From Escherichia coli (GTDB lineage: Bacteria; Pseudomonadota; Gammaproteobacteria; Enterobacterales; Enterobacteriaceae), in the NCBI RefSeq assembly GCF_003018235.1, contig NZ_CP027437.1: a DNA stretch of 64,000 bases; one strand, written 5' to 3'. Within the stretch, counting starts at the first letter, position 1. Every line of letters begins with the position of its first letter. Shown here one piece after another: positions 1,342-19,574 of the stretch. The notes under the pieces are model-generated. The model had not been told where the DNA came from. It searched no databases and was given only the letters and a program-made list of their open reading frames with translations. Made by a program: the position numbers and the translations under genes.

Positions 1342-1378
1342 AAATGCCCGGTCCTGGCGATCGGGCATTTCCATTTTT
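1342..1378. terminator. Hairpin with flanking T-run between convergent pitB and yghT; likely bidirectional intrinsic terminator
   Basis: Inverted repeat aatgcccg / cgggcatt at 1343-1350 and 1362-1369, followed by ccatttttg. Confidence 0.6.
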
Positions 1379-1380
1379 GA

Positions 1381-2073
1381 CTAGTGATACCCACGCGCGG
1401 TCATAAAATCCGTAATCGCTTTTTCTGCATCAACCAGTACCTTTTCCAGTGGCTGATTGGCGTCGATATCAACCAGTTGTGCACCACCAAAGGTTAACTG
1501 TGGCGTTATGGCTATCTTTCTTGCCAGCGATTCCCTTTTGTGGTCAGGCTTACGCGCGCAGGCCACGTCTAGATCGACATTGAGTTTGATGACCAGATCA
1601 GGTTTATGGCTCGCCATCCAGTGAAACGCTTTACGTTCCTGGCTTGCCAGCCATGAGACAAAACGACCACCTTCAATGTTAGGTGGGAACACTGTACCAT
1701 CGTAAGCGCCAGGAATTTGGTCCTGAGGATAACGGTCGGTTAGAACAATTAACCCGCGACGACGACAGGCAAGCATATGACGAAAGCGCAGTAAGCGACG
1801 GGCGACAAACGCTGTAATTACCAGCGCCGGAACAGGGCCAGGCAATTTTTTTGCTGTTTTCACCTGATTTCGTTCAATTGTTTTATGTAAGGATTTTCCC
1901 ATCAACGGTAATTTTGTCACTGCACGACCGACATTTCCGGCCTGTTTTCCTAAATGAACTCTTTCGGCTGCACCATATTTTTCGACAACGGTAATGAGAT
2001 GTTCACACACCGTTGACTTGCCTGAACCATCGCTACCAATAACGGCAATTAATGGAGGTGTTATTGACTGCAT
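1381..2073 (-). CDS. yghT: P-loop NTPase, kinase-like (YghT family)
   Basis: 230-aa ORF with Walker [14 protein letters not shown] and a downstream LTDRYP motif resembling the DRY/DRH motif of thymidylate/nucleoside-kinase-fold enzymes; paralogous to the next two genes. Confidence 0.8.
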
Positions 2074-2246
2074 GAATATATCCTTTAATTTAAATATCCA
2101 TTAAAAATATTTATTTGGTTAATATGTTTTTATGAAAGCGTAATTCAGGTCAATGTCACAATTAACCATTGTCACAATAAGGTTGAACGGATATTCTGAG
2201 CACGGACCACGTAATATTCAATACATTATTTGCTGCCGGGTTTTTC

Positions 2247-2960
2247 GTGAATCAACGTAATATGTCAATAATTAATTCCACGCCAGTGCGTGTTATTGCC
2301 ATTGTAGGATGTGATGGTTCAGGTAAATCGACCCTCACGGCAAGCCTGGTAAATGAACTGGCAGCAAGAATGCCAACAGAACACATTTATCTCGGGCAAT
2401 CGTCCGGGCGAATTGGCGAATGGATTTCACAGCTCCCTGTTATTGGCGCACCTTTTGGGCGTTATTTGCGAAGTAAAGCGGCACATGTGCACGAAAAGCC
2501 CTCAGCACCGCCTGGCAATATTACTGCGCTGGTTATCTATCTGCTTTCCTGCTGGCGGGCGTACAAGTTTCGCAAAATGTTGTGTAAAAGCCAGCAAGGC
2601 TATCTGCTCATCACCGACCGCTACCCGCAGGTTGAAGTGCCGGGTTTTCGCTTTGATGGCCCGCAATTGGCAAAAACCACGGGCGGTAACGGTTGGATAA
2701 AAATGTTAAGGCAGCGCGAGCTGAAGCTGTACCAATGGATGGCGTCTTATTTGCCCGTATTGTTGATTCGTCTTGGCATTGATGAACAAACCGCGTTTGC
2801 GCGTAAACCTGACCACCAACTGGCAGCGTTACAGGAAAAAATCGCCGTTACGCCGCAACTGACATTCAATGGCGCAAAGATCCTTGAACTGGATGGTCGG
2901 CAACCAGCCGATGAAATTATGCAAGCGTCACTACGCGCAATTCACGCCGCGCTTTCCTGA
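2247..2960 (+). CDS. yghS: P-loop NTPase, kinase-like (YghS family)
   Basis: 237-aa ORF with Walker A IAIVGCDGSGKST and ITDRYPQ motif; clear paralog of yghT and yghR; no ABC signature (LSGGQ). Confidence 0.8.
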   Translation: MNQRNMSIINSTPVRVIAIVGCDGSGKSTLTASLVNELAARMPTEHIYLGQSSGRIGEWISQLPVIGAPFGRYLRSKAAHVHEKPSAPPGNITALVIYLLSCWRAYKFRKMLCKSQQGYLLITDRYPQVEVPGFRFDGPQLAKTTGGNGWIKMLRQRELKLYQWMASYLPVLLIRLGIDEQTAFARKPDHQLAALQEKIAVTPQLTFNGAKILELDGRQPADEIMQASLRAIHAALS

Positions 2961-2991
2961 TCACCAAAATGGATAGGGGATGATTTAACGA

Positions 2992-3748
2992 ATGGATGCA
3001 CTACAAACACAAACTGTTAAGAGTACAACCGCGCCGCAGCCCAACTACATTCCGGGGCTGATTGCGGTGGTCGGGTGTGATGGCACCGGTAAATCCACGC
3101 TGACCACCGACCTGGTGAAATCGCTGCAACAACACTGGCAAACCGAGCGGCGCTATCTGGGGCTGCTCTCCGGCGAAGACGGCGACAAAATCAAACGATT
3201 GCCGTTGGTTGGCGTCTGGCTGGAACGGCGGCTGGCGGCCAAATCCTCGAAAACCCAAAGCATGAAAACCAAATTTCCAGCGCTATGGGCGGCGGTGATT
3301 ATGTACTGCTTCTCGCTGCGAAGAATGGCGAATCTACGCAAGGTTCAGCGACTGGCGCAAAGTGGCGTTCTGGTGGTCAGCGATCGCTTCCCGCAGGCTG
3401 AAATTTCGGGCTTTTATTATGACGGACCGGGGATCGGCGTCGAACGTGCGACCGGGAAAATCAGCATGTTTCTGGCGCAGCGCGAACGGCGTTTATACCA
3501 ACAAATGGCGCTACCGTCCTGAATTAATCATTCGCCTGGGCATTGATATTGATACTGCCATCTCCCGCAAGCCTGACCATGACTATGCCGAGCTGCAGGA
3601 CAAAATCGGCGTCATGTCGACGATTGGCTATAACGGCACAAAAATTCTTGAGATTGATTCCAGAGCGCCTTACAGCGAGGTGCTGGAACAGGCACAGAAG
3701 GCGGTTTCTCTGGTTGCCATCGTTTCTGACCGCCGAAGTTTAACTTAA
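2992..3748 (+). pseudogene. yghR: P-loop NTPase paralog YghR, apparently frameshifted
   Basis: Paralog homology runs in frame 1 (ORF 2992..3522, Walker A IAVVGCDGTGKST, VSDRFPQ) and then continues in another frame (ORF 3362..3748, RPELIIRLGIDIDTAISRKPDH aligning with yghS LPVLLIRLGIDEQTAFARKPDH). The 757-nt span is not a multiple of 3. Confidence 0.55.
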
Positions 3749-3793: not shown

Positions 3794-5143
3794 TTGGCGG
3801 GTTTTAACATCAAACATTGGTTTGCAGATGGCGCGTTTCGCACCATTATTCGCAATAGCGCCTGGTTAGGCTCCAGTAATGTCGTGAGCGCCTTGCTGGG
3901 TCTGTTGGCGCTCTCGTGTGCCGGTAAAGGGATGACGCCCGCCATGTTTGGCGTACTGGTGATTGTGCAATCGTACGCCAAGTCGATCAGCGATTTTATT
4001 AAGTTTCAGACATGGCAGCTGGTGGTTCAGTACGGAACGCCAGCCTTGACCAACAATAATCCGCAGCAATTTCGCAATGTTGTCTCATTTTCCTTCTCGC
4101 TGGATATCGTCAGCGGCGCGGTGGCGATTGTCGGCGGCATTGCCTTACTGCCATTCCTTTCCCATTCATTAGGTCTGGATGACCAAAGCTTTTGGCTGGC
4201 GGCGCTCTATTGCACGCTCATTCCTTCAATGGCTTCCTCCACGCCGACCGGCATTCTGCGTGCGGTAGATCGCTTTGATTTGATTGCTGTACAGCAGGCG
4301 ACGAAACCTTTTCTGCGCGCAGCGGGGAGCGTCGTAGCCTGGTATTTTGACTTTGGTTTTGCGGGTTTTGTTATTGCCTGGTACGTGTCGAATCTGGTTG
4401 GCGGCACCATGTACTGGTGGTTTGCCGCGCGCGAATTACGCCGCAGAAATATCCATAACACCTTCAAATTGAATCTGTTTGAGTCTGCCCGACACATTAA
4501 AGGCGCGTGGAGTTTTGTCTGGTCAACCAACATTGCCCACTCCATCTGGTCGGCACGTAACTCGTGCAGCACAGTGCTGGTGGGGATCGTGTTAGGACCC
4601 GCTGCCGCCGGGTTATTTAAAATCGCCATGACATTCTTCGACGCCGCCGGAACGCCAGCGGGTTTACTGGGTAAAAGTTTTTACCCAGAGGTGATGCGTT
4701 TAGATCCGCGCACCACCAGACCGTGGTTGTTAGGCGTGAAGTCCGGTTTACTGGCGGGCGGAATCGGTATTCTGGTGGCGCTCGCGGTGTTGATCGTCGG
4801 CAAGCCGCTCATTTCGCTGGTGTTTGGCGTTAAGTATCTCGAAGCGTATGACCTGATTCAGGTGATGCTGGGCGCAATTGTGATTTCGATGCTGGGCTTC
4901 CCACAGGAGTCATTGCTATTGATGGCGGGAAAACAGCGCGCTTTTCTCGTGGCGCAAACCATCGCCTCAATCGGCTACATCGTATTGCTGTTCATGTTCT
5001 GTCATCTGTTTGGCGTGCTGGGGGCTGCATTTGCTTACTTCGCTGGGCAATGTCTGGATGTGGTGTTCTCGCTAATTCCAACCTTAAAGGCATTTTTTCA
5101 GCGCCATTCCTTGCTTTATAACGCAGCCGGAGAGAAATCCTGA
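3794..5143 (+). CDS. yghQ: Polytopic inner-membrane protein, MOP-superfamily flippase-like (YghQ); true start uncertain
   Basis: 449-aa ORF with many hydrophobic segments; I recall YghQ being annotated as a putative polysaccharide/lipid flippase. K-12 protein is shorter by my recollection, so an internal start is possible. Confidence 0.7.
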   Translation: MAGFNIKHWFADGAFRTIIRNSAWLGSSNVVSALLGLLALSCAGKGMTPAMFGVLVIVQSYAKSISDFIKFQTWQLVVQYGTPALTNNNPQQFRNVVSFSFSLDIVSGAVAIVGGIALLPFLSHSLGLDDQSFWLAALYCTLIPSMASSTPTGILRAVDRFDLIAVQQATKPFLRAAGSVVAWYFDFGFAGFVIAWYVSNLVGGTMYWWFAARELRRRNIHNTFKLNLFESARHIKGAWSFVWSTNIAHSIWSARNSCSTVLVGIVLGPAAAGLFKIAMTFFDAAGTPAGLLGKSFYPEVMRLDPRTTRPWLLGVKSGLLAGGIGILVALAVLIVGKPLISLVFGVKYLEAYDLIQVMLGAIVISMLGFPQESLLLMAGKQRAFLVAQTIASIGYIVLLFMFCHLFGVLGAAFAYFAGQCLDVVFSLIPTLKAFFQRHSLLYNAAGEKS

Positions 5144-5967
5144 TGATGAGAAAATATTTCCCGCTTGAGGCTAGCGAGCGTCTATTTGTTGCGATTGAAG
5201 AAGATGATGTCGTTGATGCACAGGTCAGTTTGCCGCCGACTATCGCACTAAGTTGTACCACCGAAATCATCCATGATAATTACGCGTTATGCCTGAAATT
5301 CTGGCTGGATGGTGTTAATCGTCAGGAGCTACTGCGTTTAATCCGCAAACAGGCGAAAGGCGATGAGCTGACGACAGACGAGCGCAAAAAGTATAAATAC
5401 ATGCGAGCGCGCTACAAGCATCTGCGCTTTGCGCAACGGCTGTATTTAAAGAAGCATCAGGCCGGATTTTTATTCGGCAAAACGACCGTTTTTTTGGGGC
5501 GTTTTCAGGACGGCTTTCGTAACGGTAAGAAAAATATTGTGTCGTATTACGGCAACCTGTTACGGGTTTATTTAAGCTCTCCGGTCTGGTCGTTGGTGAA
5601 CTATTCATTACGCCATAGCCAGTTAGAAAGCGTAAGCGGTTTTATTGCCTATCGGCAAAAGCAAATGCATACCCTGAAAGAGATAATTGCCAAACCGCGA
5701 CTAACTGGCAGGGAATTTCATGATGTGCGAAAAATCATCAGCCAGCAGGTTTCTTATTACGACACCCTAAGATCGCTTGATCCTGAAAATAAAGAGGCGT
5801 TACAGATTTCCCGCTTCCTCGCCGCCATTAATGGCCTGATGGGGGATAAACACGACGACATGGTGGCGGATGATATGGAAAACCGCCAGTCGTATGATGC
5901 ACCGGTGGCGCTGGATAGCGATATTCGCCAGCGCTTAGAGCTGCTGATTTCGCGTTTTCCGCTATAA
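5143..5967 (+). CDS. Hypothetical basic protein, 274 aa, function unknown
   Basis: ORF start overlaps the yghQ stop (TGATG), indicating translational coupling; no motif I recognise. Confidence 0.55.
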   Translation: MMRKYFPLEASERLFVAIEEDDVVDAQVSLPPTIALSCTTEIIHDNYALCLKFWLDGVNRQELLRLIRKQAKGDELTTDERKKYKYMRARYKHLRFAQRLYLKKHQAGFLFGKTTVFLGRFQDGFRNGKKNIVSYYGNLLRVYLSSPVWSLVNYSLRHSQLESVSGFIAYRQKQMHTLKEIIAKPRLTGREFHDVRKIISQQVSYYDTLRSLDPENKEALQISRFLAAINGLMGDKHDDMVADDMENRQSYDAPVALDSDIRQRLELLISRFPL

Positions 5968-5975
5968 CCGGAGCA

Positions 5976-6539
5976 ATGATGTCATCTCGTTTGATTATTG
6001 CGCTGATTATCATGCTCTTAGCCCCGGGTGTGCAGGCACACAATTTCGTCACTGGCAAAACGGTTACCCCTGTTTATATCCAGGAAGGCGGCGAGCTGCT
6101 TCTGAATAGCGACGACGAAATTCACTACCAAAAGTGGAACAGCACACAGCTGGCGGGAAAAGTTCGCATTATTCAGTATATCGCCGGGCGTAAGTCGGCG
6201 AAGAAAAAGAACTCACTGTTAATTAAAGCGGTTGAAGCGGCAAACTTTCCGCAGGATCGTTTTCAGCCCACCACCATTGTGAACACCGATGATGCCATTT
6301 TTGGTACTGGCTATTTTGTCGTTGGCAAAATCGAAAAAAATAAACGCCGCTATCCGTGGGCGCAATTCGTTATTGACGGCAATGGACAGGGACGCGTTGC
6401 CTGGCGGTTGCCGGAGCAGAGTTCAACCATTCTGGTGCTGAATAAAGCCGGGCAAATTCAGTGGGCAAAGGACGGCAGCCTGACGCCGGAAGAGGTAGAA
6501 CATGTCATTGCGCTGGCGCAGAAACTGATCAATGAATAA
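5976..6539 (+). CDS. Secreted/periplasmic YtfJ-family protein
   Basis: 187-aa ORF with N-terminal signal peptide (MMSSRLIIALIIMLLAPGVQA then HNF). Blocks TTIVNTDDAI and WAKDGSLTPEEV match my memory of E. coli YtfJ. Confidence 0.6.
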   Translation: MMSSRLIIALIIMLLAPGVQAHNFVTGKTVTPVYIQEGGELLLNSDDEIHYQKWNSTQLAGKVRIIQYIAGRKSAKKKNSLLIKAVEAANFPQDRFQPTTIVNTDDAIFGTGYFVVGKIEKNKRRYPWAQFVIDGNGQGRVAWRLPEQSSTILVLNKAGQIQWAKDGSLTPEEVEHVIALAQKLINE

Positions 6540-6569
6540 AAAATTCAAAGGATTGAGGGCGTTAGTGAG

Positions 6570-7640
6570 ATGAAGCTGGTTGAACACTACATCATGCGTG
6601 GTACGCGCCGTCTGGTGCTGATTATCGTCGGTTTTCTGATCTTTATTTTCGCCAGCTACTCCGCACAGCGTTATCTGACCGAAGCGGCAAATGGGACATT
6701 AGCTCTTGATGTTGTGCTGGATATTGTTTTCTACAAGGTGCTGATTGCACTGGAGATGTTGTTACCTGTTGGACTGTATGTGTCAGTTGGCGTGACGCTA
6801 GGGCAGATGTATACCGACTCGGAAATTACCGCTATTTCTGCGGCGGGGGGCAGTCCGGGACGCTTGTACAAAGCCGTTCTTTATCTGGCGATACCGCTAA
6901 GTATTTTTGTCACCCTTCTGTCGATGTATGGTCGTCCGTGGGCTTATGCGCAGATTTATCAACTGGAGCAACAGTCACAGTCGGAGCTGGATGTTCGCCA
7001 GTTGCGGGCAAAGAAATTTAACACTAACGATAACGGACGAATGATCCTTTCGCAGACGGTTGATCAGGATAATAATCGCCTGACTGACGCGCTGATTTAT
7101 ACTTCTACTGCCAATCGAACCCGCATTTTCCGCGCCCGTTCGGTTGATGTGGTTGACCCATCACCTGAGAAACCGACCGTTATGTTGCATAACGGGACCG
7201 CCTATCTTCTCGATCATCAGGGGCGTGACGACAACGAACAGATCTACCGTAATCTGCAATTACATCTGAATCCGCTGGATCAAAGCCCTAACGTCAAACG
7301 CAAAGCAAAATCGGTCACGGAGCTGGCGCGCTCCGCCTTTCCTGCCGATCATGCCGAACTGCAATGGCGACAAAGCCGTGGCCTGACAGCATTGTTGATG
7401 GCGCTGCTGGCCATTTCATTAAGTCGGGTAAAACCGCGGCAAGGGCGATTTTCAACGTTATTGCCACTGACGTTGCTGTTTATTGCCATTTTTTATGGCG
7501 GCGACGTCTGCCGTACGCTGGTGGCTAACGGCGCGATTCCCCTCATTCCTGGTTTGTGGTTAGTACCCGGACTCATGCTAATGGGCCTGCTGATGCTGGT
7601 CGCACGCGACTTCTCATTGCTGCAGAAATTTTCCCGATGA
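6570..7640 (+). CDS. LptF/LptG-family (YjgP/YjgQ) permease, first of a pair
   Basis: 356-aa ORF with N-terminal TM helices, an LGQMYTDSEITAISAAG block resembling LptF LGKLYTESEIT, a central soluble domain and C-terminal TM helices. Confidence 0.7.
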   Translation: MKLVEHYIMRGTRRLVLIIVGFLIFIFASYSAQRYLTEAANGTLALDVVLDIVFYKVLIALEMLLPVGLYVSVGVTLGQMYTDSEITAISAAGGSPGRLYKAVLYLAIPLSIFVTLLSMYGRPWAYAQIYQLEQQSQSELDVRQLRAKKFNTNDNGRMILSQTVDQDNNRLTDALIYTSTANRTRIFRARSVDVVDPSPEKPTVMLHNGTAYLLDHQGRDDNEQIYRNLQLHLNPLDQSPNVKRKAKSVTELARSAFPADHAELQWRQSRGLTALLMALLAISLSRVKPRQGRFSTLLPLTLLFIAIFYGGDVCRTLVANGAIPLIPGLWLVPGLMLMGLLMLVARDFSLLQKFSR

Positions 7641-8716
7641 ATGTTTTCAGTCGCTATTTAATCCGTCATCTCTTTCTCGGTTTTGCCGCCGCCGCAGGGC
7701 TATTGCTGCCGCTTTTTACCACCTTCAACCTGATTAACGAACTGGATGATGTCAGCCCGGGCGGTTATCGCTGGACTCAGGCGGTGCTGGTGGTGCTGAT
7801 GACCTTACCGCGTACACTGGTCGAACTTTCGCCGTTTATCGCATTATTGGGAGGGATTGTTGGCCTGGGGCAGTTATCGAAAAACAGTGAGCTTACCGCC
7901 ATTCGCAGCACGGGGTTTTCTATCTTCCGTATTGCACTAGTGGCGCTGGTTGCCGGGATATTGTGGACTGTTTCGTTAGGCGCGATAGATGAGTGGGTGG
8001 CGTCGCCATTGCAGCAACAGGCGCTGCAAATCAAATCGACTGCCACCGCGTTGGGGGAGGACGATGACATTACCGGCAATATGCTTTGGGCCAGGCGCGG
8101 TAATGAATTTGTGACGGTGAAATCGCTGAACGAGCAGGGCCAGCCTGTGGGCGTGGAGATATTTCATTATCGCGACGATCTCTCGCTCGAATCCTACATT
8201 TTTGCACGCAGTGCCTCCATTGAAGACGACAAAACATGGATCCTGCATGGTGTGAATCATAAAAAATGGTTGAATGGCAAGGAAACGCTGGAAACATCAG
8301 ATAATCTTGCCTGGCAATCGGCCTTCACCAGTATGAATCTTGAAGAGTTATCGATGCCGGGAAATACTTTTTCTGTCCGTCAACTTAATCATTACATCCA
8401 TTATTTGCAGGAAACTGGGCAACCCAGCAGCGAATACCGCCTTGCACTGTGGGAAAAACTGGGACAACCCATCCTGACCCTGGCGATGATTTTGCTGGCT
8501 GTGCCGTTTACCTTTAGTGCCCCGCGTTCGCCTGGGATGGGTAGCCGTCTCGCTGTAGGCGTCATCGTGGGCTTACTTACCTGGATCAGCTATCAAATCA
8601 TGGTCAATCTGGGATTGCTATTTGCGTTGAGCGCACCTGTTACCGCGCTCGGTTTACCGGTAGCGTTTGTGCTGGTGGCGTTGAGCCTGGTGTATTGGTA
8701 TGACAGACAACATTAA
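7637..8716 (+). CDS. LptF/LptG-family (YjgP/YjgQ) permease, second of a pair
   Basis: Start MNVFSRYLIRH overlaps the upstream stop (ATGA at 7637-7640); SELTAIRSTGFS block resembles LptG SELVVMQASGF; same TM - periplasmic domain - TM layout. Confidence 0.7.
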   Translation: MNVFSRYLIRHLFLGFAAAAGLLLPLFTTFNLINELDDVSPGGYRWTQAVLVVLMTLPRTLVELSPFIALLGGIVGLGQLSKNSELTAIRSTGFSIFRIALVALVAGILWTVSLGAIDEWVASPLQQQALQIKSTATALGEDDDITGNMLWARRGNEFVTVKSLNEQGQPVGVEIFHYRDDLSLESYIFARSASIEDDKTWILHGVNHKKWLNGKETLETSDNLAWQSAFTSMNLEELSMPGNTFSVRQLNHYIHYLQETGQPSSEYRLALWEKLGQPILTLAMILLAVPFTFSAPRSPGMGSRLAVGVIVGLLTWISYQIMVNLGLLFALSAPVTALGLPVAFVLVALSLVYWYDRQH

Positions 8717-8717
8717 A

Positions 8718-8744
8718 CCCGCCGTGGCGCAACACCACAGCGGG
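8718..8744. terminator. Hairpin in the 35-bp gap between the convergent permease and Spt-like genes; possible bidirectional terminator
   Basis: cccgccgtgg (8718-8727) and ccacagcggg (8735-8744) form an imperfect inverted repeat with one mismatch. Confidence 0.4.
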
Positions 8745-8750
8745 CTCACA

Positions 8751-9923
8751 TTACTGCTTCAGAGTAGCGAACGCTTGAATGATGGCATCAATTTGCTCAC
8801 GACTGTGGGCAGCGTTTACGCTACAGCGCAGCAGCGTGATGCCTGCAGGCGCGGCAGGTGGCAGGATAAGATTCACATAAACGCCCAGCGAAATAAGCTC
8901 GCGCCAGATGCGTAAACCTTCCTCTTTCGAACCGATTATTACTGGCACTACCGGGCTAATATGTGAACTTAACTCATAATCCAGTTTTTGCAGACCGTCA
9001 TACAGATGGTTGGCATTATCCATCAGCTTTTGCCGCAACTCTGGTTGTGAGACAATGGTTCTTAACGACGAGCGCACGGTCGCAATGCAGGACGGAGAAG
9101 GAGAGGCGGTAAAAATATACGGGCGGCTGCCGTAGCGCAACACTTCCATCGCTTCCGAACCGACAGCAAAACCGCCAATCGAGGCCAGGCTTTTACTGAA
9201 GGTACCAACGATAATATCCACATCATCTTCAACGCCAACGGCTTCAGCCAGTCCGCGCCCCGTTGCGCCTAACACGCCAAACGAATGCGCTTCATCGACA
9301 ATCAAATAACCACCGAGACGACGTTTGATATCAACAATTTCCGCCAGCGGCGCAACGTCACCGAGCATACTGTAGATGCCTTCAACGATGATAATCGCCT
9401 CTTTTGCCCGTTCACCGAGGCGAACCATGCGCCGTTCCAGATCTTTAGCATCGTTATGGCGGAAACGAATAATTTCCGCGCCACCGAGAGAACAGGCGTC
9501 ATAAATACTGGCGTGGCTGTCGGCATCCAGTAACACCACGGCGTTATGGTCGGCAAGTGCGCTGATGACGCCTAAATTAGCGGTATAACCGGTTGAAAAA
9601 ACGATAGCGGTAGGGCGATTAAAAAACTCGGCGATCTCTTTCTCTAACGCCAGATGCGGCGCATAACTGCCGTTTGCCATACGAGAACCGGTGGTGCCGG
9701 TGCCTTGGGCCGCTAACGCTGCCTGACCTTCGGCGATGGCATCATGATTAAAGGTTAAACCGAGATAATTATTGGTCCCGGCCAGAATCACTTTTTTATT
9801 GCCGATCCGACCTTCGGTGGCGGAATACACTTCATCAATACAGGTGCCAAACGGTGTTAACCCGTTGTCACTAAATTGCAGTCGCTCGCCAGCAAGGCGC
9901 GCATATTTATCGTATAGCCCCAT
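8751..9923 (-). CDS. PLP-dependent alpha-oxoamine synthase, serine-palmitoyltransferase-like (Spt/Kbl/BioF family)
   Basis: 390-aa ORF with the PLP-lysine motif GTFSKSLASIGGF and DEAHSFG, as in serine palmitoyltransferase and 8-amino-7-oxononanoate synthase. Confidence 0.8.
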   Translation of the reverse strand: MGLYDKYARLAGERLQFSDNGLTPFGTCIDEVYSATEGRIGNKKVILAGTNNYLGLTFNHDAIAEGQAALAAQGTGTTGSRMANGSYAPHLALEKEIAEFFNRPTAIVFSTGYTANLGVISALADHNAVVLLDADSHASIYDACSLGGAEIIRFRHNDAKDLERRMVRLGERAKEAIIIVEGIYSMLGDVAPLAEIVDIKRRLGGYLIVDEAHSFGVLGATGRGLAEAVGVEDDVDIIVGTFSKSLASIGGFAVGSEAMEVLRYGSRPYIFTASPSPSCIATVRSSLRTIVSQPELRQKLMDNANHLYDGLQKLDYELSSHISPVVPVIIGSKEEGLRIWRELISLGVYVNLILPPAAPAGITLLRCSVNAAHSREQIDAIIQAFATLKQ

Positions 9924-10171
9924 TATTTATTCTCCAGCCATGGAAGTAGTGTTTCCATTAATTGCGCAGGGGTTTTGACATCCAGCAGAATATTAATAGG
10001 AATGGAAATATCGAATCTGTCTTCCAGCATCATTAAGAGATCCATCACTTTGATCGACTCCAGGCCAAGATCGTTGACGAGATCGCTGTCGGGCTTAATT
10101 TCCACACCGTTTTCGACCAAATCCTGTAAACAGGAAAGGATGTAATCCATTACTATTTCACGATTTACCAT
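9923..10171 (-). CDS. Acyl carrier protein
   Basis: 82-aa acidic ORF with phosphopantetheine-attachment motif DLGLESIKVMDL; its stop overlaps the Spt start (TAATG). Confidence 0.75.
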   Translation of the reverse strand: MVNREIVMDYILSCLQDLVENGVEIKPDSDLVNDLGLESIKVMDLLMMLEDRFDISIPINILLDVKTPAQLMETLLPWLENK

Positions 10172-10202
10172 AGAAACGTTAACACACCTTTAAACAAGAC
10201 AA

Positions 10203-11117
10203 TCAAAATAGCCCGTTGCGTAATGCGTGTTCCAGGCTAATCCCGGGAAACCAATTAATATCTTCAGAAATACGGTTATTACTTGCCGACCAGTCGGCAT
10301 GAGTTAATTCACGGATTTTCGAACGAGTCAGCATCGGTTCTTTACCCGCCAGACGGCTCAACGCGGTACTGATATCCGCAAGGCAGGTGAGTAGCGGCAG
10401 AGGAATACCGACCATCCGCACGGAACCGCAACGGGCGTCGGCGGCAAGCTGTCTTACGCGTTGCCAGTCATAGCCTCCGGCGACGCCATCGCATAATTCA
10501 TAGGTTTGCGTCTGTACAGTTTCGGCGCTTAACCACTGACCCACTGCTTGCGCAAAATCGGTGACGTGAAGAAAAGAGAGCTGTGTCTCTGGCGTGCCAA
10601 GTCGTGGCAGCAGGCCGCGCAGCATCCAGTCAAACAGCGGTTTTAACTCTTTATCGCCGGGACCATACACGGCTGTCGGGCGAAAAACGCCCAGCGTAAT
10701 TTCATCAGCCATTGCAGTCAGCCGTTGTTCGGCGACGTGTTTGGAATTTGCGTACCAGGAGAGTTCGGGATGGCGCGCCGCCAGCGAAGAGATAAACAGA
10801 AAACGTTGGCAAAAGCCGCTCTCTTTTGCCGCTTGCATCAGGCGCAGGCTGCCGTCAACGTTACAGCGGGTAAAAATCTCTTCTTTGTGTCCGCGCACTT
10901 GTCCGGCGCAATGGACCACCGCGCTGGCTCCGGCAACCAGTTCGCTAAGCGAATGTGTATCTTCCAGCGAACCGCGCACCCAGATGAGATTATCATTGAC
11001 GTGAGCGCGGGCAGTACGCGTCAATGCGCGAACGTGAAAGCCGCGGGCGAGCAGGTTATCGATAATATATTTACCGATAAACCCGGTAGCGCCCGTCACC
11101 GCGACAGTTTGATTCAT
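10203..11117 (-). CDS. NAD(P)-dependent epimerase/dehydratase-family (extended SDR) reductase, CerR-like
   Basis: 304-aa ORF with N-terminal Rossmann motif VTGATGFIG and catalytic YxxxK (YANSK). Confidence 0.75.
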   Translation of the reverse strand: MNQTVAVTGATGFIGKYIIDNLLARGFHVRALTRTARAHVNDNLIWVRGSLEDTHSLSELVAGASAVVHCAGQVRGHKEEIFTRCNVDGSLRLMQAAKESGFCQRFLFISSLAARHPELSWYANSKHVAEQRLTAMADEITLGVFRPTAVYGPGDKELKPLFDWMLRGLLPRLGTPETQLSFLHVTDFAQAVGQWLSAETVQTQTYELCDGVAGGYDWQRVRQLAADARCGSVRMVGIPLPLLTCLADISTALSRLAGKEPMLTRSKIRELTHADWSASNNRISEDINWFPGISLEHALRNGLF

Positions 11118-12823
11118 GCCAGGGATTCCTGCACATGAAGGCTTGCAGCATAACGTTTTTTCGCTTCCGCACGGGCAGGCTTGCCGGAGGACGTTCGGGG
11201 AATACTGTGGGGCGGCAACAGATCGATAGCCGCTGTTACGCCAAATTCGCTTTGGATCCGTGCTACCAGTGCGTGGATAAGCTGCCCACGACGTTCTTCG
11301 TCGCTGATCCTACACTGGATCTGCAGAATGATTTTTTCCTGGGCGGTAACAAAAGCAATCGCATCGCCAGAATGAATTTCCGGTTCCTGTTCCGCAATAT
11401 ATTCAATATCCTGCGGCCAGATATTACGGCCACGAATAATAATCAGATCTTTAATGCGTCCGGTGACATACAGATAACCGTCCAGCAGATAACCGAGGTC
11501 GCCGGTGTCTAACCAGCCCGTCGCGGCAATCTCGTCTTGTGAAATCTGGTCGCCAAAGTAACCGCTCATCAGGCTAGGGCCGGAGATGCAAATATGGCCT
11601 ACCACACGTTCCGCGACAGGTATACCTGCTTCATTGCGGATTTCAATGCCATGTTCCGGCAACGCTTTACCGCAGTTGACGAAAGTCGATACGGCGCGTG
11701 TTTCAGCATCCGGCGCGACGGCTTTGCCCTGATATTCGAGGATGTCGCGATCCACTTCGTTAACCACAACCCCGGAAGCTTCATCAGAGAAGCTGACAGC
11801 CAGCGCATTTTCTGCCAGTCCGTAGCACGGCATGAAAGTTTTATCGTCAAAGTTGACCTGACGGAAACATTCAGCGAATTGATGGAGTTGTTCTGCGGAG
11901 ATGGGTTCTGCACCAATACCAGCGACGCGCCAGCAGGAAAGATCCAGTTCAGCGAGATCTTTTTCATTCACGCGGCGCTGGCACAATTCATAGCCAAACG
12001 GCGGCGCAACGGAAACGGTGCCGCGATTTTTACTGATCAATTTAAGCCATTGCAGAGGACGCATGGCAAAATCCTGAGTGCGCAAATAATCTACTGAAAG
12101 CTGCGTGGCGACGGGGGGCAGGAGAAAGCCGACCAGTCCCATATCATGGTAGAAAGGCAGCCAGGAGACGCAGCGGTCGCCAGGGCGTAATTTAATGCCA
12201 TCGTGGCTTATAGCACGTAGATTAGCCATCACTTCGCGATGGGTGATAATGACGCCACGGGGAAAACGGGTGCTGCCGGAGGTGTACTGGAGGTAGGCGA
12301 TATCGTTCGGAACTGGACGCTGGAGCGCAACATCGGCTTCCGGTAATGCCTTAAACCAGGCGTGGCTTAAAACATGTAATTCGGGGTTGTTATGCGTAGC
12401 GGCATTGACCAGTGGCAACCACTCATCACCAGTGATAATGGCTGCGGGCTGGCAACTTGCCAGTAAACCCTGCAGTTTGGCGCTCCAGGAATCCCGCTGA
12501 CCGACGCCCATTGGAATCGCCAACGGGACGGCGACTAAGCCGGCATACTGGCAGGAAAAAAAAGCCTCTACGAACCCGCTACTGGTTTCGGCAATCAGCG
12601 CCACGCGATCGCCTTTTTTCAGGTTCAGCGATAACAACCGCTTCGCACCAGCTTCGGCACGCGCTTTTAACGTCTGATATTCCAGTTGATCTTCAAGTTG
12701 GCAACGTCTGTCATAAAAATTCATTCCGGCGCTACTCAGAGCGGCGTAGTCCAAAGCATCAACCAGCGTTGGAAAATCGGCATAGCGCATAGGTAGGGAA
12801 TGCGTAAAGATTTTATTAGACAT
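11114..12823 (-). CDS. Fatty-acyl-AMP ligase / acyl-ACP synthetase (AMP-binding superfamily)
   Basis: Adenylation motifs YTSGSTRFPRGV and TGDLGY...GRIKDLIIIRGRNI; stop overlaps the reductase start (ATGA). Start taken at the ATG for MSNKIF; the ORF track extends to 12850 on a TTG. Confidence 0.8.
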   Translation of the reverse strand: MSNKIFTHSLPMRYADFPTLVDALDYAALSSAGMNFYDRRCQLEDQLEYQTLKARAEAGAKRLLSLNLKKGDRVALIAETSSGFVEAFFSCQYAGLVAVPLAIPMGVGQRDSWSAKLQGLLASCQPAAIITGDEWLPLVNAATHNNPELHVLSHAWFKALPEADVALQRPVPNDIAYLQYTSGSTRFPRGVIITHREVMANLRAISHDGIKLRPGDRCVSWLPFYHDMGLVGFLLPPVATQLSVDYLRTQDFAMRPLQWLKLISKNRGTVSVAPPFGYELCQRRVNEKDLAELDLSCWRVAGIGAEPISAEQLHQFAECFRQVNFDDKTFMPCYGLAENALAVSFSDEASGVVVNEVDRDILEYQGKAVAPDAETRAVSTFVNCGKALPEHGIEIRNEAGIPVAERVVGHICISGPSLMSGYFGDQISQDEIAATGWLDTGDLGYLLDGYLYVTGRIKDLIIIRGRNIWPQDIEYIAEQEPEIHSGDAIAFVTAQEKIILQIQCRISDEERRGQLIHALVARIQSEFGVTAAIDLLPPHSIPRTSSGKPARAEAKKRYAASLHVQESLA

Positions 12824-13194
12824 ATACACCACGAAAAAATTGGATATCAAAAATAAAATGACAATAATGCGGTGGATTATATAGGCATAAAAGATAAATG
12901 AGATAGTATTTTCATCAGTGTGAAAATGAACATTGATTTAAATAATGAGTTTGAGTTTTTTTGTTTTTATTGTGAATGATATTTAATTTATGAATGTATT
13001 AAGAAGAAGCCTTGTCCGGTCGCCTTAAATCGACAAAAGGCATTGTGGCGCTTCTGTGTAGTCTCTGACCTTATCGTAATCATTAATAAATGCTATTTAT
13101 TCGTCGTTTGTATTCATTGGGTTGATTATTAAGGTGCCGTTCGTTGCTGTTGCAACCTGTTTGTCACCGTTAATTATTTGTTACCCACAGAACT
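12824..13194. promoter_or_regulatory. AT-rich divergent control region between the lipid operon (-) and yghO (+)
   Basis: ~370 bp of visibly AT-rich non-coding DNA with A/T tracts between two divergently oriented starts; typical of divergent promoters and H-NS-bound regions. No specific site identified. Confidence 0.45.
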
Positions 13195-14337
13195 ATGGAA
13201 TGCGATCTGCTGATGATTAAAATTGAAAAAGTAATTAATAAAAATGACCTTAAGGCATTTATCGCTTTTCCGTCATCACTTTATCCCGACGATCCAAACT
13301 GGATACCCCCTTTATTCATTGAACGCAACGAGCATTTGTCTGCGAAAAATCCGGGGACGGACCATATCATCTGGCAGGCGTGGGTGGCAAAAAAAGCCGG
13401 GCAGATAGTTGGGCGAATTACCGCGCAAATCGATACCTTGCACCGTGAGCGTTACGGTGAAGATACCGGTCATTTCGGCATGATTGACGCCATTGATGAT
13501 CCGCAGGTTTTTGCCGCGTTGTTTGGCGCAGCGGAAGCGTGGTTGAAGTCACAAGGAGCAAGTAAGATCAGCGGGCCTTTCAGCCTGAATATCAATCAGG
13601 AAAGCGGATTACTGATTGAAGGTTTCGATACACCACCCTGTGCGATGATGCCGCACGGTAAACCGTGGTATGCCGCGCATATTGAACAATTGGGTTATCA
13701 CAAAGGCATTGATTTACTGGCGTGGTGGATGCAGCGAACCGATCTCACTTTCTCTCCGGCGCTAAAAAAACTGATGGATCAGGTGCGTAAGAAGGTGACC
13801 ATTCGCTGCATCAATCGCCAGCGGTTTGCCGAAGAGATGCAGATCCTGCGTGAGATTTTCAACTCTGGCTGGCAGCACAACTGGGGATTTGTGCCGTTTA
13901 CCGAACATGAATTCGCGACCATGGGCGATCAACTTAAATATCTGGTGCCGGACGATATGATCTACATCGCTGAGATTGATTCTGCACCCTGCGCGTTTAT
14001 TGTCGGCTTGCCAAACATCAACGAGGCGATTGCCGATCTGAACGGATCGCTCTTTCCCTTCGGCTGGGCAAAATTGCTGTGGCGTTTAAAAGTCAGCGGT
14101 GTGCGAACTGCGCGAGTACCGCTGATGGGCGTGCGGGACGAGTATCAGTTTAGCCGCATCGGCCCGGTGATTGCGCTGTTATTGATTGAAGCCTTACGCG
14201 ATCCGTTTGCCCGCCGGAAGATCGATGCGCTGGAAATGTCATGGATCCTCGAAACCAATACAGGCATGAATAACATGCTGGAACGCATTGGGGCGGAGCC
14301 GTACAAGCGTTACCGATTGTATGAAAAGCAGATTTAA
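13195..14337 (+). CDS. yghO: YghO, candidate N-acyltransferase (possibly GNAT-like), intact here
   Basis: 380-aa ORF next to glcC, which is where yghO sits in E. coli. The acyltransferase assignment is from recollection of annotation and context, not from a motif I can verify. Start could be M7 (MIKIEKV). Confidence 0.65.
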   Translation: MECDLLMIKIEKVINKNDLKAFIAFPSSLYPDDPNWIPPLFIERNEHLSAKNPGTDHIIWQAWVAKKAGQIVGRITAQIDTLHRERYGEDTGHFGMIDAIDDPQVFAALFGAAEAWLKSQGASKISGPFSLNINQESGLLIEGFDTPPCAMMPHGKPWYAAHIEQLGYHKGIDLLAWWMQRTDLTFSPALKKLMDQVRKKVTIRCINRQRFAEEMQILREIFNSGWQHNWGFVPFTEHEFATMGDQLKYLVPDDMIYIAEIDSAPCAFIVGLPNINEAIADLNGSLFPFGWAKLLWRLKVSGVRTARVPLMGVRDEYQFSRIGPVIALLLIEALRDPFARRKIDALEMSWILETNTGMNNMLERIGAEPYKRYRLYEKQI

Positions 14338-14343
14338 TACCAG

Positions 14344-15108
14344 CTAACTCTGGTTCATCTCCAGCGGCACCGCCGAGCGAATCAAATGGTGGCCTTCCAG
14401 CTCGATATCGTGGAGATTCTTTTTCACGGTCCGCACATGATCGCGTGCTGCGCGCTGGGCGACGTGCGGCAGCCGCTGCAACACCGCGTTGTAGATCCGC
14501 GCATGCTGGCGATCGATCTGCTTTTTTTGCTGTGGTCGATGGTAGAGATTATTTACGCTGGCAAACACTGAATTAAACATCAGGTCGGTCAATGATTGCA
14601 GTGTAAACACCAACACCTGATTGTGAGAAGCCTGACAAATGGCGAGATGGAAAGCGTGATCCAACTGCGCATGTTCGATCAGCGAAATCTCTTTGTTGTT
14701 CTCACTGGCGGCGAGCATTTTTTCATAACAGCGGGTTATCACAACAAAATCAGCCTGCGTTCCCAGCGTTGCCGCCAGCCTTGCCGATTCGCCCTCCAGC
14801 AATGCGCGAACGTCGAGCAGATCATACAGCGTTCGCGGCTGCGTACTGAACAGATGGATCAGCGGGCTGGTGTCCTGCACCCGATTAAGCCGTGCGACAC
14901 GAGAATCGCGACCCTGCGCCGTTTCAATAATCCCGCGCCCGCGCAGCACGGTCAGCCCTTCACGCAGTGCGGAGCGTGAGAAGCCGAGCTTTTCACACAG
15001 TCGACGTTCCGAGGGAAGCGGCTGACCGACCTTCAGTACGCCGTCGATAATTAACCGTTCGATACTCTCTGCAACCACTTCGCAAATAGGGCGACGTTCA
15101 TCTTTCAT
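14344..15108 (-). CDS. glcC: GntR-family transcriptional activator of the glycolate operon
   Basis: 254 aa from MKDERRPICEVVAES; N-terminal GntR-type HTH; divergent from glcD. Confidence 0.9.
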   Translation of the reverse strand: MKDERRPICEVVAESIERLIIDGVLKVGQPLPSERRLCEKLGFSRSALREGLTVLRGRGIIETAQGRDSRVARLNRVQDTSPLIHLFSTQPRTLYDLLDVRALLEGESARLAATLGTQADFVVITRCYEKMLAASENNKEISLIEHAQLDHAFHLAICQASHNQVLVFTLQSLTDLMFNSVFASVNNLYHRPQQKKQIDRQHARIYNAVLQRLPHVAQRAARDHVRTVKKNLHDIELEGHHLIRSAVPLEMNQS

Positions 15109-15358
15109 TCCCGGACCTCGTGCACAGGTAGGACCAATTTTTCTGTTCTTGACTCGCAAAACACGCACATCACGTAAGTGATTATGTTACATCAATTTAA
15201 CATTAAGTTAACCAAGACAAGGTCACAGAGCTGGAAAAAAAATGGTCTGACCGGTAGCTAAAGAGATAGACGAAAACGAAAAGCCCGCTTAATAACTGTT
15301 CACAGAAGCAGCGCGCAAAAATCAGCTGCCACACAACACAACAAAGCGAAGCCTACTC
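15109..15358. promoter_or_regulatory. glcC-glcD divergent promoter region
   Basis: 250-bp intergenic region between divergent starts; the known architecture of the glc locus. Individual binding sites not mapped. Confidence 0.5.
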
Positions 15359-16858
15359 ATGAGCATCTTGTACGAAGAGCGTCTTGATGGCGCTTTACCC
15401 GATGTCGACCGCACATCGGTACTGATGGCACTGCGTGAGCATGTCCCTGGACTGGAGATCCTGCATACCGATGAGGAGATCATTCCTTACGAGTGTGACG
15501 GGTTGAGCGCGTATCGCACGCGTCCATTACTGGTTGTTCTGCCTAAGCAAATGGAACAGGTGACAGCGATTCTGGCTGTTTGTCACCGCCTGCGTGTACC
15601 GGTGGTGACCCGTGGTGCAGGCACCGGGCTTTCTGGTGGCGCGCTGCCGCTGGAAAAAGGTGTGTTGTTGGTGATGGCGCGCTTTAAAGAGATCCTCGAC
15701 ATTAACCCCGTTGGTCGCCGCGCGCGCGCGCAGCCGGGCGTGCGTAACCTGGCGATCTCCCAGGCCGTTGCGCCGCATAATCTCTATTACGCGCCGGATC
15801 CTTCCTCACAAATCGCCTGTTCAATTGGCGGCAATGTGGCGGAAAATGCCGGTGGCGTCCACTGCCTGAAATATGGTCTGACCGTACATAACCTGCTGAA
15901 AATTGAAGTGCAAACGCTGGACGGCGAGGCGCTGACGCTGGGATCGGACGCGCTGGATTCGCCTGGTTTTGACCTGCTGGCGCTGTTCACCGGATCGGAA
16001 GGTATGCTCGGCGTGACCACCGAAGTAACGGTGAAGCTGTTGCCGAAGCCGCCCGTGGCGCGGGTTCTGTTAGCCAGCTTTGACTCGGTAGAAAAAGCCG
16101 GACTTGCAGTTGGTGACATCATCGCCAATGGCATTATCCCCGGCGGGCTGGAGATGATGGATAACCTGTCGATCCGCGCGGCGGAAGATTTTATTCATGC
16201 CGGTTATCCCGTCGACGCCGAAGCGATTTTGTTATGCGAGCTGGACGGCGTGGAGTCTGACGTACAGGAAGACTGCGAGCGGGTTAACGACATCTTGTTA
16301 AAAGCGGGCGCGACTGACGTCCGTCTGGCACAGGACGAAGCAGAGCGCGTACGTTTCTGGGCCGGTCGCAAAAATGCGTTCCCTGCGGTAGGACGAATCT
16401 CCCCGGATTACTACTGCATGGATGGCACCATCCCGCGCCGTGCCCTGCCTGGCGTACTGGAAGGCATTGCCCGTTTATCGCAGCAATATGATTTACGTGT
16501 TGCTAACGTCTTTCATGCCGGAGACGGCAACATGCACCCGTTAATCCTTTTCGATGCCAACGAACCCGGTGAATTTGCCCGCGCGGAAGAGCTGGGCGGG
16601 AAGATCCTCGAACTCTGCGTTGAAGTTGGCGGCAGCATCAGTGGGGAACATGGCATCGGGCGAGAAAAAATCAATCAAATGTGCGCCCAGTTCAACAGCG
16701 ATGAAATCACGACCTTCCATGCGGTCAAGGCGGCGTTTGACCCCGATGGTTTGCTGAACCCTGGGAAAAACATTCCCACGCTACACCGCTGTGCTGAATT
16801 TGGTGCCATGCATGTGCATCACGGTCATTTACCTTTCCCTGAACTGGAGCGTTTCTGA
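15359..16858 (+). CDS. glcD: Glycolate oxidase FAD-binding subunit
   Basis: 499-aa ORF, FAD-binding PCMH-type oxidase; first gene of the glcDEFGBA order. Confidence 0.9.
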   Translation: MSILYEERLDGALPDVDRTSVLMALREHVPGLEILHTDEEIIPYECDGLSAYRTRPLLVVLPKQMEQVTAILAVCHRLRVPVVTRGAGTGLSGGALPLEKGVLLVMARFKEILDINPVGRRARAQPGVRNLAISQAVAPHNLYYAPDPSSQIACSIGGNVAENAGGVHCLKYGLTVHNLLKIEVQTLDGEALTLGSDALDSPGFDLLALFTGSEGMLGVTTEVTVKLLPKPPVARVLLASFDSVEKAGLAVGDIIANGIIPGGLEMMDNLSIRAAEDFIHAGYPVDAEAILLCELDGVESDVQEDCERVNDILLKAGATDVRLAQDEAERVRFWAGRKNAFPAVGRISPDYYCMDGTIPRRALPGVLEGIARLSQQYDLRVANVFHAGDGNMHPLILFDANEPGEFARAEELGGKILELCVEVGGSISGEHGIGREKINQMCAQFNSDEITTFHAVKAAFDPDGLLNPGKNIPTLHRCAEFGAMHVHHGHLPFPELERF

Positions 16859-17910: not shown

Positions 17911-17920
17911 GGAGCAGGCT

Positions 17921-19144: not shown

Positions 19145-19148
19145 CAAA

Positions 19149-19553
19149 ATGAAAACTAAAGTCATTCTTAGCCAGCAAATGGCGAGTGCAATTATTGCCG
19201 CAGGTCAGGAAGAGGCGCAGAAAAATAACTGGTCTGTTTCCATTGCTGTTGCCGATGACGGCGGTCATCTGCTGGCGTTAAGTCGCATGGACGATTGCGC
19301 GCCGATTGCGGCTTACATCTCCCAGGAGAAAGCGCGTACCGCCGCGCTGGGGCGTCGTGAAACTAAGGGCTATGAAGAGATGGTGAACAACGGACGTACC
19401 GCGTTCGTGACTGCGCCGTTATTAACGTCGCTGGAAGGCGGCGTACCGGTTGTTGTGGATGGGCAAATTATTGGTGCCGTGGGCGTTTCTGGTTTAACCG
19501 GAGTACAGGATGCGCAGGTCGCGAAAGCGGCAGCAGCGGTGTTGGCGAAATAA
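19149..19553 (+). CDS. glcG: GlcG (DUF336-family) protein
   Basis: 134 aa from MKTKVILSQQ; operon position between glcF and glcB. Confidence 0.85.
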   Translation: MKTKVILSQQMASAIIAAGQEEAQKNNWSVSIAVADDGGHLLALSRMDDCAPIAAYISQEKARTAALGRRETKGYEEMVNNGRTAFVTAPLLTSLEGGVPVVVDGQIIGAVGVSGLTGVQDAQVAKAAAAVLAK

Positions 19554-19574
19554 GCGAAAACGAGGAGATAAACA

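Follow-up and report, generated by a model that had tools for sequence, protein, structure and literature searches.

YghT, YghS and YghR, three thymidylate-kinase-like paralogs of a predicted Escherichia coli sphingolipid locus, and their possible role in lipid head-group phosphorylation

We analysed a 64,000-nucleotide stretch of Escherichia coli DNA (assembly GCF_003018235.1, contig NZ_CP027437.1; the window, meaning this whole stretch) in which three genes for P-loop kinase-like proteins, yghT, yghS and yghR, stand beside a predicted sphingolipid pathway. The names are those of the same genes in RefSeq E. coli genomes, where the order is pitB, yghT, yghS, yghR and a 'lipopolysaccharide biosynthesis protein' gene, which is yghQ; strain M114 was used as the annotated reference, and the extent of yghS in the window is identical to its RefSeq annotation in M114. 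An initial annotation of the window had described three tandem paralogs of about 230–250 amino acids between positions 1381 and 3748, with Walker A and DRYP or DRFP motifs. BLASTP confirmed the paralogy at 34–44% identity (YghT–YghS 36%, E 3e-53; YghT–YghR 34%, E 4e-48; YghS–YghR 44%, E 5e-62), and because of these E-values it is far above chance. The Walker A motif of yghR reads GCDGTGKST, and the second motif is DRYPQ in YghT and YghS and DRFPQ in YghR. The term tandem applies to yghS and yghR alone, with 31 bp between them; yghT points the other way, and a spacer of 173 bp (positions 2074–2246) and 30% GC, against 52% for the window, separates the two divergent genes yghT and yghS. YghT and YghS are intact (230 and 237 amino acids); yghR is frameshifted, a point missed in the initial annotation, and would encode 252 amino acids only if repaired.

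The 2.5-kb kinase region is present in 4,743 of 5,426 complete E. coli genomes at 95–99% identity. In the window, yghR reads as two overlapping open reading frames (ORFs) in different frames, 2992–3522 and 3362–3748. Alignment to the intact 252-amino-acid yghR of M114 placed the cause at a 2-bp (AA) deletion after base 3511; the site (3499–3520) reads GCGC--TACC here and GCGCAATACC in the reference, and is not a homopolymer run. None of the 5,426 complete genomes matched a 46-base query across the deletion junction, and because the junction is absent from them the deletion is either a private mutation or an assembly error. The frameshift may abolish the module's function or have polar effects on downstream genes, and the module may therefore be defective in this window.

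To place the three proteins among their relatives we searched with the YghS protein, which returned 1,299 homologues, the named ones spanning many genera of Enterobacterales, and scanned 100,044 species genomes for YghT relatives. The scan yielded 79 loci from gamma- and betaproteobacteria, including Enterobacterales, Rhodanobacteraceae, Halioglobus, Methylotenera, Rhodocyclaceae, Nitrotoga and others, and their kinase genes supplied 212 sequences. Each of the 212 was closest, among the sequences of other loci, to a member of its own orthogroup, and median identity was 54–59% inside the T, S and R orthogroups versus 34–41% across them. By these comparisons, T, S and R are clean, ancient orthogroups, taken to have distinct functions, and the triplication is older than the spread of the locus.

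Standard family models left the kinases nearly unlabelled. Pfam gave no significant assignment (sub-threshold P-loop and thymidylate kinase matches only, with Thymidylate_kin at i-E 0.013–0.43), a single-sequence search of the PDB gave nothing useful, and the NCBIfam model for deoxythymidine monophosphate (dTMP) kinase, TIGR00041, scored the three at 22–25 bits against a curated cut-off of 83.25. A 50-sequence family profile, in contrast to the single sequence, reached solved thymidylate kinases (TMPKs) in the PDB at E 2.5e-11, with the match falling in three blocks: the P-loop, the DRY strand and motif, and the LID and C-terminus. The AlphaFold (AF2) model of YghT has a pLDDT of 91.9, and its best Foldseek matches were nearly all thymidylate kinases (E ~1e-8, TM-score by target 0.6–0.7); no LpxK-like structure occurred among the top 50. 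The thymidylate-kinase-type fold proposed in the initial annotation is thus borne out by profile and model alike, and YghT, YghS and YghR are members of the thymidylate-kinase superfamily at the level of fold. Since the scores lie far under the curated dTMP-kinase cut-off, the RefSeq product name 'dTMP kinase' for the trio is probably an over-annotation.

Residue conservation across the 212 sequences points to three active enzymes. Invariant (~100%) in all three orthogroups are the P-loop, D113-R114-x-P116-Q117, D125, E146, R174-K175-P-D-H178 and K186, and because catalytic-type residues are kept in each orthogroup, no paralog appears to resemble a dead subunit. With thymidylate kinase (EC 2.7.4.9; PF02223/TIGR00041) the family shares the fold, a P-loop with an acidic residue at position 3, the DR(Y/F) motif, a basic LID and the helix arginine for the acceptor phosphate. 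In the profile alignment, family R93 and R114 align to Arg78 (helix) and Arg99 (DRX) of Plasmodium TMPK, which we take to be the arginines that clamp the phosphate of the acceptor, dTMP. The nucleotide-binding segment appears to differ: the hidden Markov model alignment sets Plasmodium 'FPNRETGIG' opposite the family's 'LGkgsGnlG', so that in it the R-x-P arginine is lost and the two phosphate-clamping arginines are retained, and the family motifs LG..G, LPxxG, (Y/F)DG and RKPDH appear to replace this segment of TMPK, with LG..G and LPxxG standing in for R-x-P itself. Further differences from thymidylate kinase are the very basic character of the Ygh proteins and their occurrence as three conserved paralogs in lipid loci, not in nucleotide metabolism.

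Natural gene fusions connect the paralogs to one another and to membrane transport. Single-chain proteins join S to R (P0126) or a T-like to an S/R-like kinase (P0125, P0127), which suggests that the paralogs work in physical contact; YghT, YghS and YghR probably act as a hetero-oligomer. More distant relatives of about 500 amino acids (P0170, P0178, P0187) carry an N-terminal NTP_transf_5-like domain (E 1.9e-5). Other family members are fused to a MOP flippase (P0201 and P0269, ~1,000 amino acids), and these carry the NTP_transf_5-like domain as well. Loci L005 and L006 contain fused kinases in Wzx/Wzy polysaccharide clusters together with a second, weak kinase paralog, and a search of these two loci for CHAD-like genes found none.

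A conserved non-kinase companion of the trio is a protein of 274 amino acids annotated as hypothetical. It has no Pfam match and no sequence match in the PDB. Its predicted structure is all-helical and confident (pLDDT 94.4), and in the model it adopts the two four-helix-bundle fold with the conserved histidine and basic residues expected of CHAD; Foldseek agreement with CHAD was weak, and unrelated helical bundles aligned over just ~100 residues. CHAD domains are characterised polyphosphate-binding modules. The isoelectric points (pI) of all four proteins are high, 9.4–9.9 overall and 9.6–9.9 for the kinases. The idea that the 274-amino-acid protein corresponds to the N-terminal domain of the ~500-amino-acid kinase fusions was rejected, as the two show no similarity and that domain is NTP_transf_5-like.

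We counted neighbours in the 50 of the 79 loci that have full 10-kb flanks. S and R stood beside T in 45 of them and exactly three kinases were present in 43; the CHAD-fold gene occurred in 43, at least one ceramide-synthesis gene in 39, yghQ in 33 and lptF2/G2 in 28. Serratia and Carnimonas (Halomonadaceae) have the same arrangement as E. coli, including all three kinases. The link to the neighbouring lipid pathway is therefore considerably stronger than the initial annotation could establish, since across many genera the trio travels with ceramide-synthesis, Lpt-paralog and flippase genes.

Clustering of the remaining ORFs in 30 diverse loci revealed further companions, several of them placed tightly around the YghT-type gene. 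A relative of the lipid A 1-phosphate O-methyltransferase LmtA (E 1e-30) was found in 8 loci and in all 8 lies 12–30 bp upstream of the YghT-type gene on the same strand. A secreted PAP2 phosphatase was encoded in 17 loci, always downstream of the YghT-type gene and in its orientation, at a distance of no more than 262 bp in 9 of them, and a second PAP2 phosphatase in 9. Locus L049 (9057–20670) and loci L058, L073, L076 and L082 (~9100–11400), from beta- and gammaproteobacterial relatives, are examples of the LmtA-like/YghT/PAP2 arrangement. An OlsC/LpxO-like lipid hydroxylase (E 1e-66) was present in 9 loci and a family 4 glycosyltransferase (GT4) in 6, and LptA-like and RND/OMF efflux genes were further neighbours. 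Some Betaproteobacteria have a T-only module, without S and R and beside housekeeping genes, in the order LmtA-like, YghT, GT4, CHAD-fold, PAP2, PAP2, RND. At the edge of the sphingolipid locus, a paralog of the prokaryotic diacylglycerol kinase DgkA is encoded in 19 of the 79 loci (L002 2279–2644, L004 12404–12730 and 17 more), in Serratia, Pantoea, Rosenbergiella, Mangrovibacter, Carnimonas and other hosts; the window has none. E. coli DgkA phosphorylates ceramide in vitro, and the locus-encoded paralog is a candidate ceramide kinase for a first phosphate.

Table 1. Features of the yghT–yghO region of the window (positions from the first nucleotide of the window).
Feature	Position	Strand	Evidence or remark
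Terminator-like hairpin	1342–1370		Between pitB and the 3' end of yghT; 12-pair stem, then T run
yghT, TMPK-like P-loop kinase paralog T	1381–2073	-	230 aa, intact ORF; orthogroup T in 79 loci
yghT/yghS divergent intergenic region, presumed promoter region	2074–2246		173 bp, 30% GC
yghS, TMPK-like P-loop kinase paralog S	2247–2960	+	Intact ORF of 237 aa that starts with GTG
yghR, TMPK-like P-loop kinase paralog R	2992–3748	+	Disrupted by 2-bp deletion; 252 aa if repaired
yghQ, MOP (Wzx-like) flippase family	3794–5143	+	449 aa; weak NCBIfam MOP flippase match, E 1e-8
CHAD-fold protein, annotated hypothetical; conserved kinase partner	5143–5967	+	274 aa; predicted fold
YtfJ-family protein paralog	5976–6539	+	TIGR01626, 212 bits vs cut-off 151
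LptF paralog (LptF2)	6570–7640	+	RefSeq annotation of orthologue; Pfam LptF_LptG in Serratia
LptG paralog (LptG2)	7637–8716	+	4-bp overlap with lptF2; ORF and annotation
Hairpin between convergent lptG2 and spt	8714–8748		16-pair stem
spt, serine palmitoyltransferase	8751–9923	-	NF047599, 595 bits vs curated cut-off 500
acpR, specialised acyl carrier protein	9923–10171	-	ORF, annotation, PMC9386255
cerR/epi, NAD-dependent epimerase/reductase family	10203–11117	-	ORF, annotation, PMC9386255
aasR, fatty acyl-AMP ligase (acyl-AcpR synthetase)	11114–12850	-	NF006624, 867 bits vs cut-off 600
yghO, N-acyltransferase, ceramide synthase homologue (aca/bCerS)	13195–14337	+	ORF, annotation, assignment in PMC9386255

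The layout in the window follows this pattern (Table 1). The genes from yghS through lptG2 are tightly packed, with gaps of -4 to 45 bp, and spt, acpR, the reductase gene and aasR run convergent to them, with yghO beyond. The five E. coli ceramide genes had already been pointed out, and the Spt orthologue of E. coli BL21 forms 3-oxo-sphinganine in vitro (PMC9386255). The Serratia orthologue of YghQ has a Pfam Polysacc_synt_3 domain. No hydroxylase or glycosyltransferase was found among the ORFs and annotations of the E. coli locus, and it has no LptB paralog. The segment from yghQ to yghO (3794–14337) is at least 80% covered in 4,062 of the 5,426 complete E. coli genomes, about three quarters, and at least one E. 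coli genome keeps just yghQ and yghO of it, flanking an IS5 element. A scan for promoters and terminators gave counts at chance level, and the two long hairpins alone were retained; the yghT/yghS spacer holds one sigma-70-like match (2169–2197, plus strand) that is no better than chance. In one transcriptome yghS rose ~3-fold on overexpression of SlyA in K-12, and the low GC content of the spacer and this response are compatible with a silenced yghT/yghS promoter. As separate observations, the second YtfJ-family protein (5976–6539) is kept within the locus across Enterobacterales, and the large ORFs past yghO (14344–21746) correspond, by synteny with M114, to the glycolate operon (glcC, glcDEFG, glcB), which other E. 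coli also have there.

The closest precedent we found for the trio and its CHAD-fold partner, by analogy, is PPK3 of Sulfolobus acidocaldarius (Saci_2019/Saci_2020), a heteromeric polyphosphate kinase made of two dTMPK paralogs whose genes are annotated as thymidylate kinases and form one operon with a CHAD protein gene and ppx (PMC12995831). These paralogs showed no dTMP kinase activity, the regulatory subunit has lost the DRX arginine, the neighbourhood holds the polyphosphate and phosphate genes ppx, sixA, pstSC and Nudix, and PPK3 hosts mostly lack PPK1 and PPK2 (PMC12995831). Common to both systems are adjacent dTMPK-like paralogs, annotated as thymidylate kinases (for the Ygh proteins probably in error), and a CHAD protein in one locus; PPK3 itself is a hetero-oligomer acting on a non-nucleotide phosphate acceptor. 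The Ygh system differs in having three paralogs instead of two, in keeping R114 of the DRX motif in 100% of the sequences of all three orthogroups, and in its context of ceramide synthesis, Lpt paralogs and a flippase. Neither the layouts with annotation or Pfam labels nor the conserved families identified among the neighbours contained PPK3-type ppx, sixA or pst genes, and the Ygh profile scored the S. tokodaii cPPK3 homologue (2plr/5h70) at 27.5 bits, in the P-loop only, versus 47 bits for canonical TMPKs.

A second comparison is with the CpgA–D proteins of Caulobacter, a head-group module that turns ceramide into a strongly anionic lipid. Its ceramide kinase CpgB is of the GGDG/DAG-kinase type (PMC10331486), and the remaining members of the module are a nucleotidyltransferase and transferases. 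Like the Ygh kinases, the module sits inside a proteobacterial sphingolipid locus; its lipid is exported via LptF2/G2 paralogs, which a preprint reports to be needed for sphingolipid export in Caulobacter, with the housekeeping LptB used; the same preprint draws the E. coli UTI89 locus without discussing the kinases. The enzymes themselves are non-homologous to the Ygh kinases. Homology to CpgB in particular was rejected, given its DAG-kinase type against the P-loop TMPK fold of the Ygh proteins, and the comparison with bacterial ceramide kinases suggested in the initial annotation thus showed no relation to CpgB. None of the E. coli-type loci examined showed the Cpg module, and the two modules look like alternative head-group solutions.

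Phosphate chemistry on lipid A offers a third parallel. LpxK is a P-loop kinase that acts on a membrane lipid, and lipid A can bear a 1-diphosphate. Among the enzymes of this chemistry (the 4'-kinase LpxK, LpxT, which forms the 1-diphosphate, the phosphatases LpxE/LpxF and the methyltransferase LmtA), relatives of LmtA and LpxE/F-type PAP2 phosphatases, together with LpxO/OlsC relatives, adjoin the YghT-type gene in many loci. The difference is that the lipid genes near the Ygh kinases serve ceramide, not lipid A.

Together these results lead us to propose, at a little less than an even chance, that YghT, YghS and YghR have been drawn out of nucleotide metabolism and are catalytically competent phosphotransferases, none of the three redundant, which phosphorylate the head group of the lipid made by the neighbouring sphingolipid pathway. 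The fold, conservation, neighbourhoods and fusions were computed here; from them we infer the substrate, the order of the steps and an oligophosphate product. The trio and the CHAD-fold protein would form a head-group module for the sphingolipid of spt, acpR, cerR, aasR and yghO. Ceramide would be made at the cytoplasmic face of the inner membrane and would receive a first phosphate from one of the three kinases, from DgkA or from a locus-encoded DgkA paralog. The TMPK-like kinases would then transfer ATP's gamma-phosphate to this already phosphorylated head group, in the way that TMPK phosphorylates dTMP, giving a di- or oligophosphate and hence a strongly anionic lipid whose phosphate chain the CHAD-fold protein may bind or hold. 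The MOP flippase YghQ would flip this lipid, and LptB with LptF2G2 would export it to the outer membrane. That a head-group phosphate may be extended, trimmed and capped is suggested because of the TMPK-type chemistry, the high pI, the CHAD partner, the flippase fusions and the lipid-phosphate methyltransferase and phosphatase neighbours. The more specific version, in which the trio and the CHAD-fold protein build an oligo- or polyphosphate anchored on a lipid (ceramide di-, tri- or oligophosphate), we consider rather unlikely in its own right. The three-step relay on one substrate raised in the initial annotation may hold, with some indirect support from the CHAD-fold neighbour and the kinase–kinase fusions.

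Several observations weigh against this proposal. No ceramide gene lies within 10 kb in 11 of the 50 full-flank loci, and the CHAD likeness of the 274-amino-acid protein is visible by fold, not by sequence. The invariant acidic residues D125 and E146 might serve as general bases toward a hydroxyl acceptor, and this would speak against phosphate-on-phosphate chemistry. Flippase fusions of related kinases occur in Wzx/Wzy polysaccharide clusters without a CHAD gene, and from these fusions the ancestral acceptor may be a sugar on a lipid carrier. Our literature search found no biochemical or lipidomic account of the Ygh kinases or of an E. coli sphingolipid, and no description of pyro-, tri- or polyphosphate forms of ceramide. 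In a panel of K-12 transposon mutants the ygh kinase genes gave no striking phenotype, a result that says little because K-12 lacks the ceramide genes.

Two alternatives keep the kinases tied to the sphingolipid. The three enzymes may phosphorylate different hydroxyls (for instance C1-OH, C3-OH or a 2-hydroxyacyl group of ceramide, or those of an added sugar) with no phosphoanhydride formed, the CHAD-fold protein merely binding a head group with several phosphates. The invariant D125 and E146, possible catalytic bases situated beyond the blocks that match TMPK, would suit this chemistry, as would the hydroxyl-adding OlsC/LpxO-like hydroxylases (9/30 loci), the GT4 genes (6/30) and the flippase–kinase fusions in polysaccharide clusters. 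However, the DRX and helix arginines that form the phosphate-acceptor clamp of TMPK are retained, the E. coli locus has no hydroxylase or glycosyltransferase, and the CHAD fold is associated with phosphoanhydride chains (PMC12995831); we regard this alternative as doubtful, to the same degree as the oligophosphate version of our own. The kinases could instead act on a head-group precursor that is soluble (for instance a polyol, a sugar, glycerate or an amino alcohol) and is later moved to ceramide. Most P-loop kinases of the TMPK fold take soluble substrates, the relatives fused to an NTP_transf_5-like domain resemble kinase-plus-nucleotidyltransferase activation pathways, and the Caulobacter head group is built from soluble phosphoglycerate via CpgD. 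Such a route is nonetheless improbable in our judgement: in E. coli, Serratia and Carnimonas the locus lacks any obvious head-group transferase, be it a nucleotidyltransferase, a CDP-alcohol transferase or another enzyme, clustering of neighbour ORFs in the 30 loci gave no conserved head-group transferase family, and the tightest neighbours, LmtA-like and PAP2, are relatives of lipid-phosphate enzymes.

The remaining alternatives loosen or cut the tie to the lipid. As in Sulfolobus, dTMPK paralogs share an operon with a CHAD protein, the proteins are basic and the natural fusions suggest hetero-oligomers, all of which would suit a PPK3-like heteromeric kinase that makes or uses free polyphosphate bound by the CHAD protein and is only loosely tied to the lipid pathway. 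The retention of the DRX arginine in all three paralogs, the lack of ppx, sixA and pst genes in the annotated layouts and conserved neighbour families, the preference of the profile for canonical TMPKs and the consistent association with ceramide, Lpt and flippase genes make this marginally less probable still than a soluble precursor. E. coli moreover possesses PPK1, whereas PPK3 hosts mostly do without PPK1 and PPK2. That the three are ATPases energising or gating the YghQ flippase or LptF2G2, and not kinases, would accord with the MOP flippase fusions of some organisms and with the lack of an LptB paralog in the locus. Their fold with DRX and LID is nevertheless of the kinase type and not ABC- or RecA-like, and MOP flippases are not ATP-driven; with the Caulobacter LptF2G2 running on the housekeeping LptB, we think a transport role very unlikely. 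Least credible is that they are genuine additional dTMP kinases, or other nucleoside or nucleotide kinases, as the RefSeq product names and the TMPK fold and motifs would have it. The TIGR00041 scores, the missing significant Pfam match, the apparently replaced R-x-P segment and the three conserved copies in lipid loci of many taxa all argue the other way, as do the Sulfolobus paralogs annotated as dTMPKs that showed no such activity (PMC12995831).

The initial annotation held the substrates to be unknown, which agrees with the literature we found, where the genes are listed just as uncharacterized ATP-binding proteins. No paper in our search linked yghT, yghS or yghR with sphingolipids, CHAD or polyphosphate. 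The genes have long been known as y-genes, and it is their function and their sphingolipid and CHAD context that appear to be undescribed.

Textbooks credit E. coli with three membrane phospholipids, yet most of its complete genomes carry at least 80% of this sphingolipid segment, and in the window the part from yghQ to yghO is a complete set of predicted ceramide-synthesis and export genes. The locus offers no head-group candidates other than the three kinases and the CHAD-fold protein, and knowing their function would establish how the finished enterobacterial sphingolipid is built. The same knowledge would show whether this is an anionic lipid of the outer membrane comparable to lipid A, a question with consequences for polymyxin binding, for the barrier and for recognition by the host. 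At the level of annotation, the analysis probably corrects a widespread 'dTMP kinase' assignment, and it may extend a recent result, the action on phosphate chains of thymidylate-kinase paralogs that are paired with CHAD proteins. An oligophosphate lipid, if it exists, would add a new class to the strongly anionic lipids of the outer membrane, encoded by a locus found in many gamma- and betaproteobacteria, and would be, after PPK3, a second, independent recruitment of thymidylate-kinase paralogs to phosphoanhydride chemistry.

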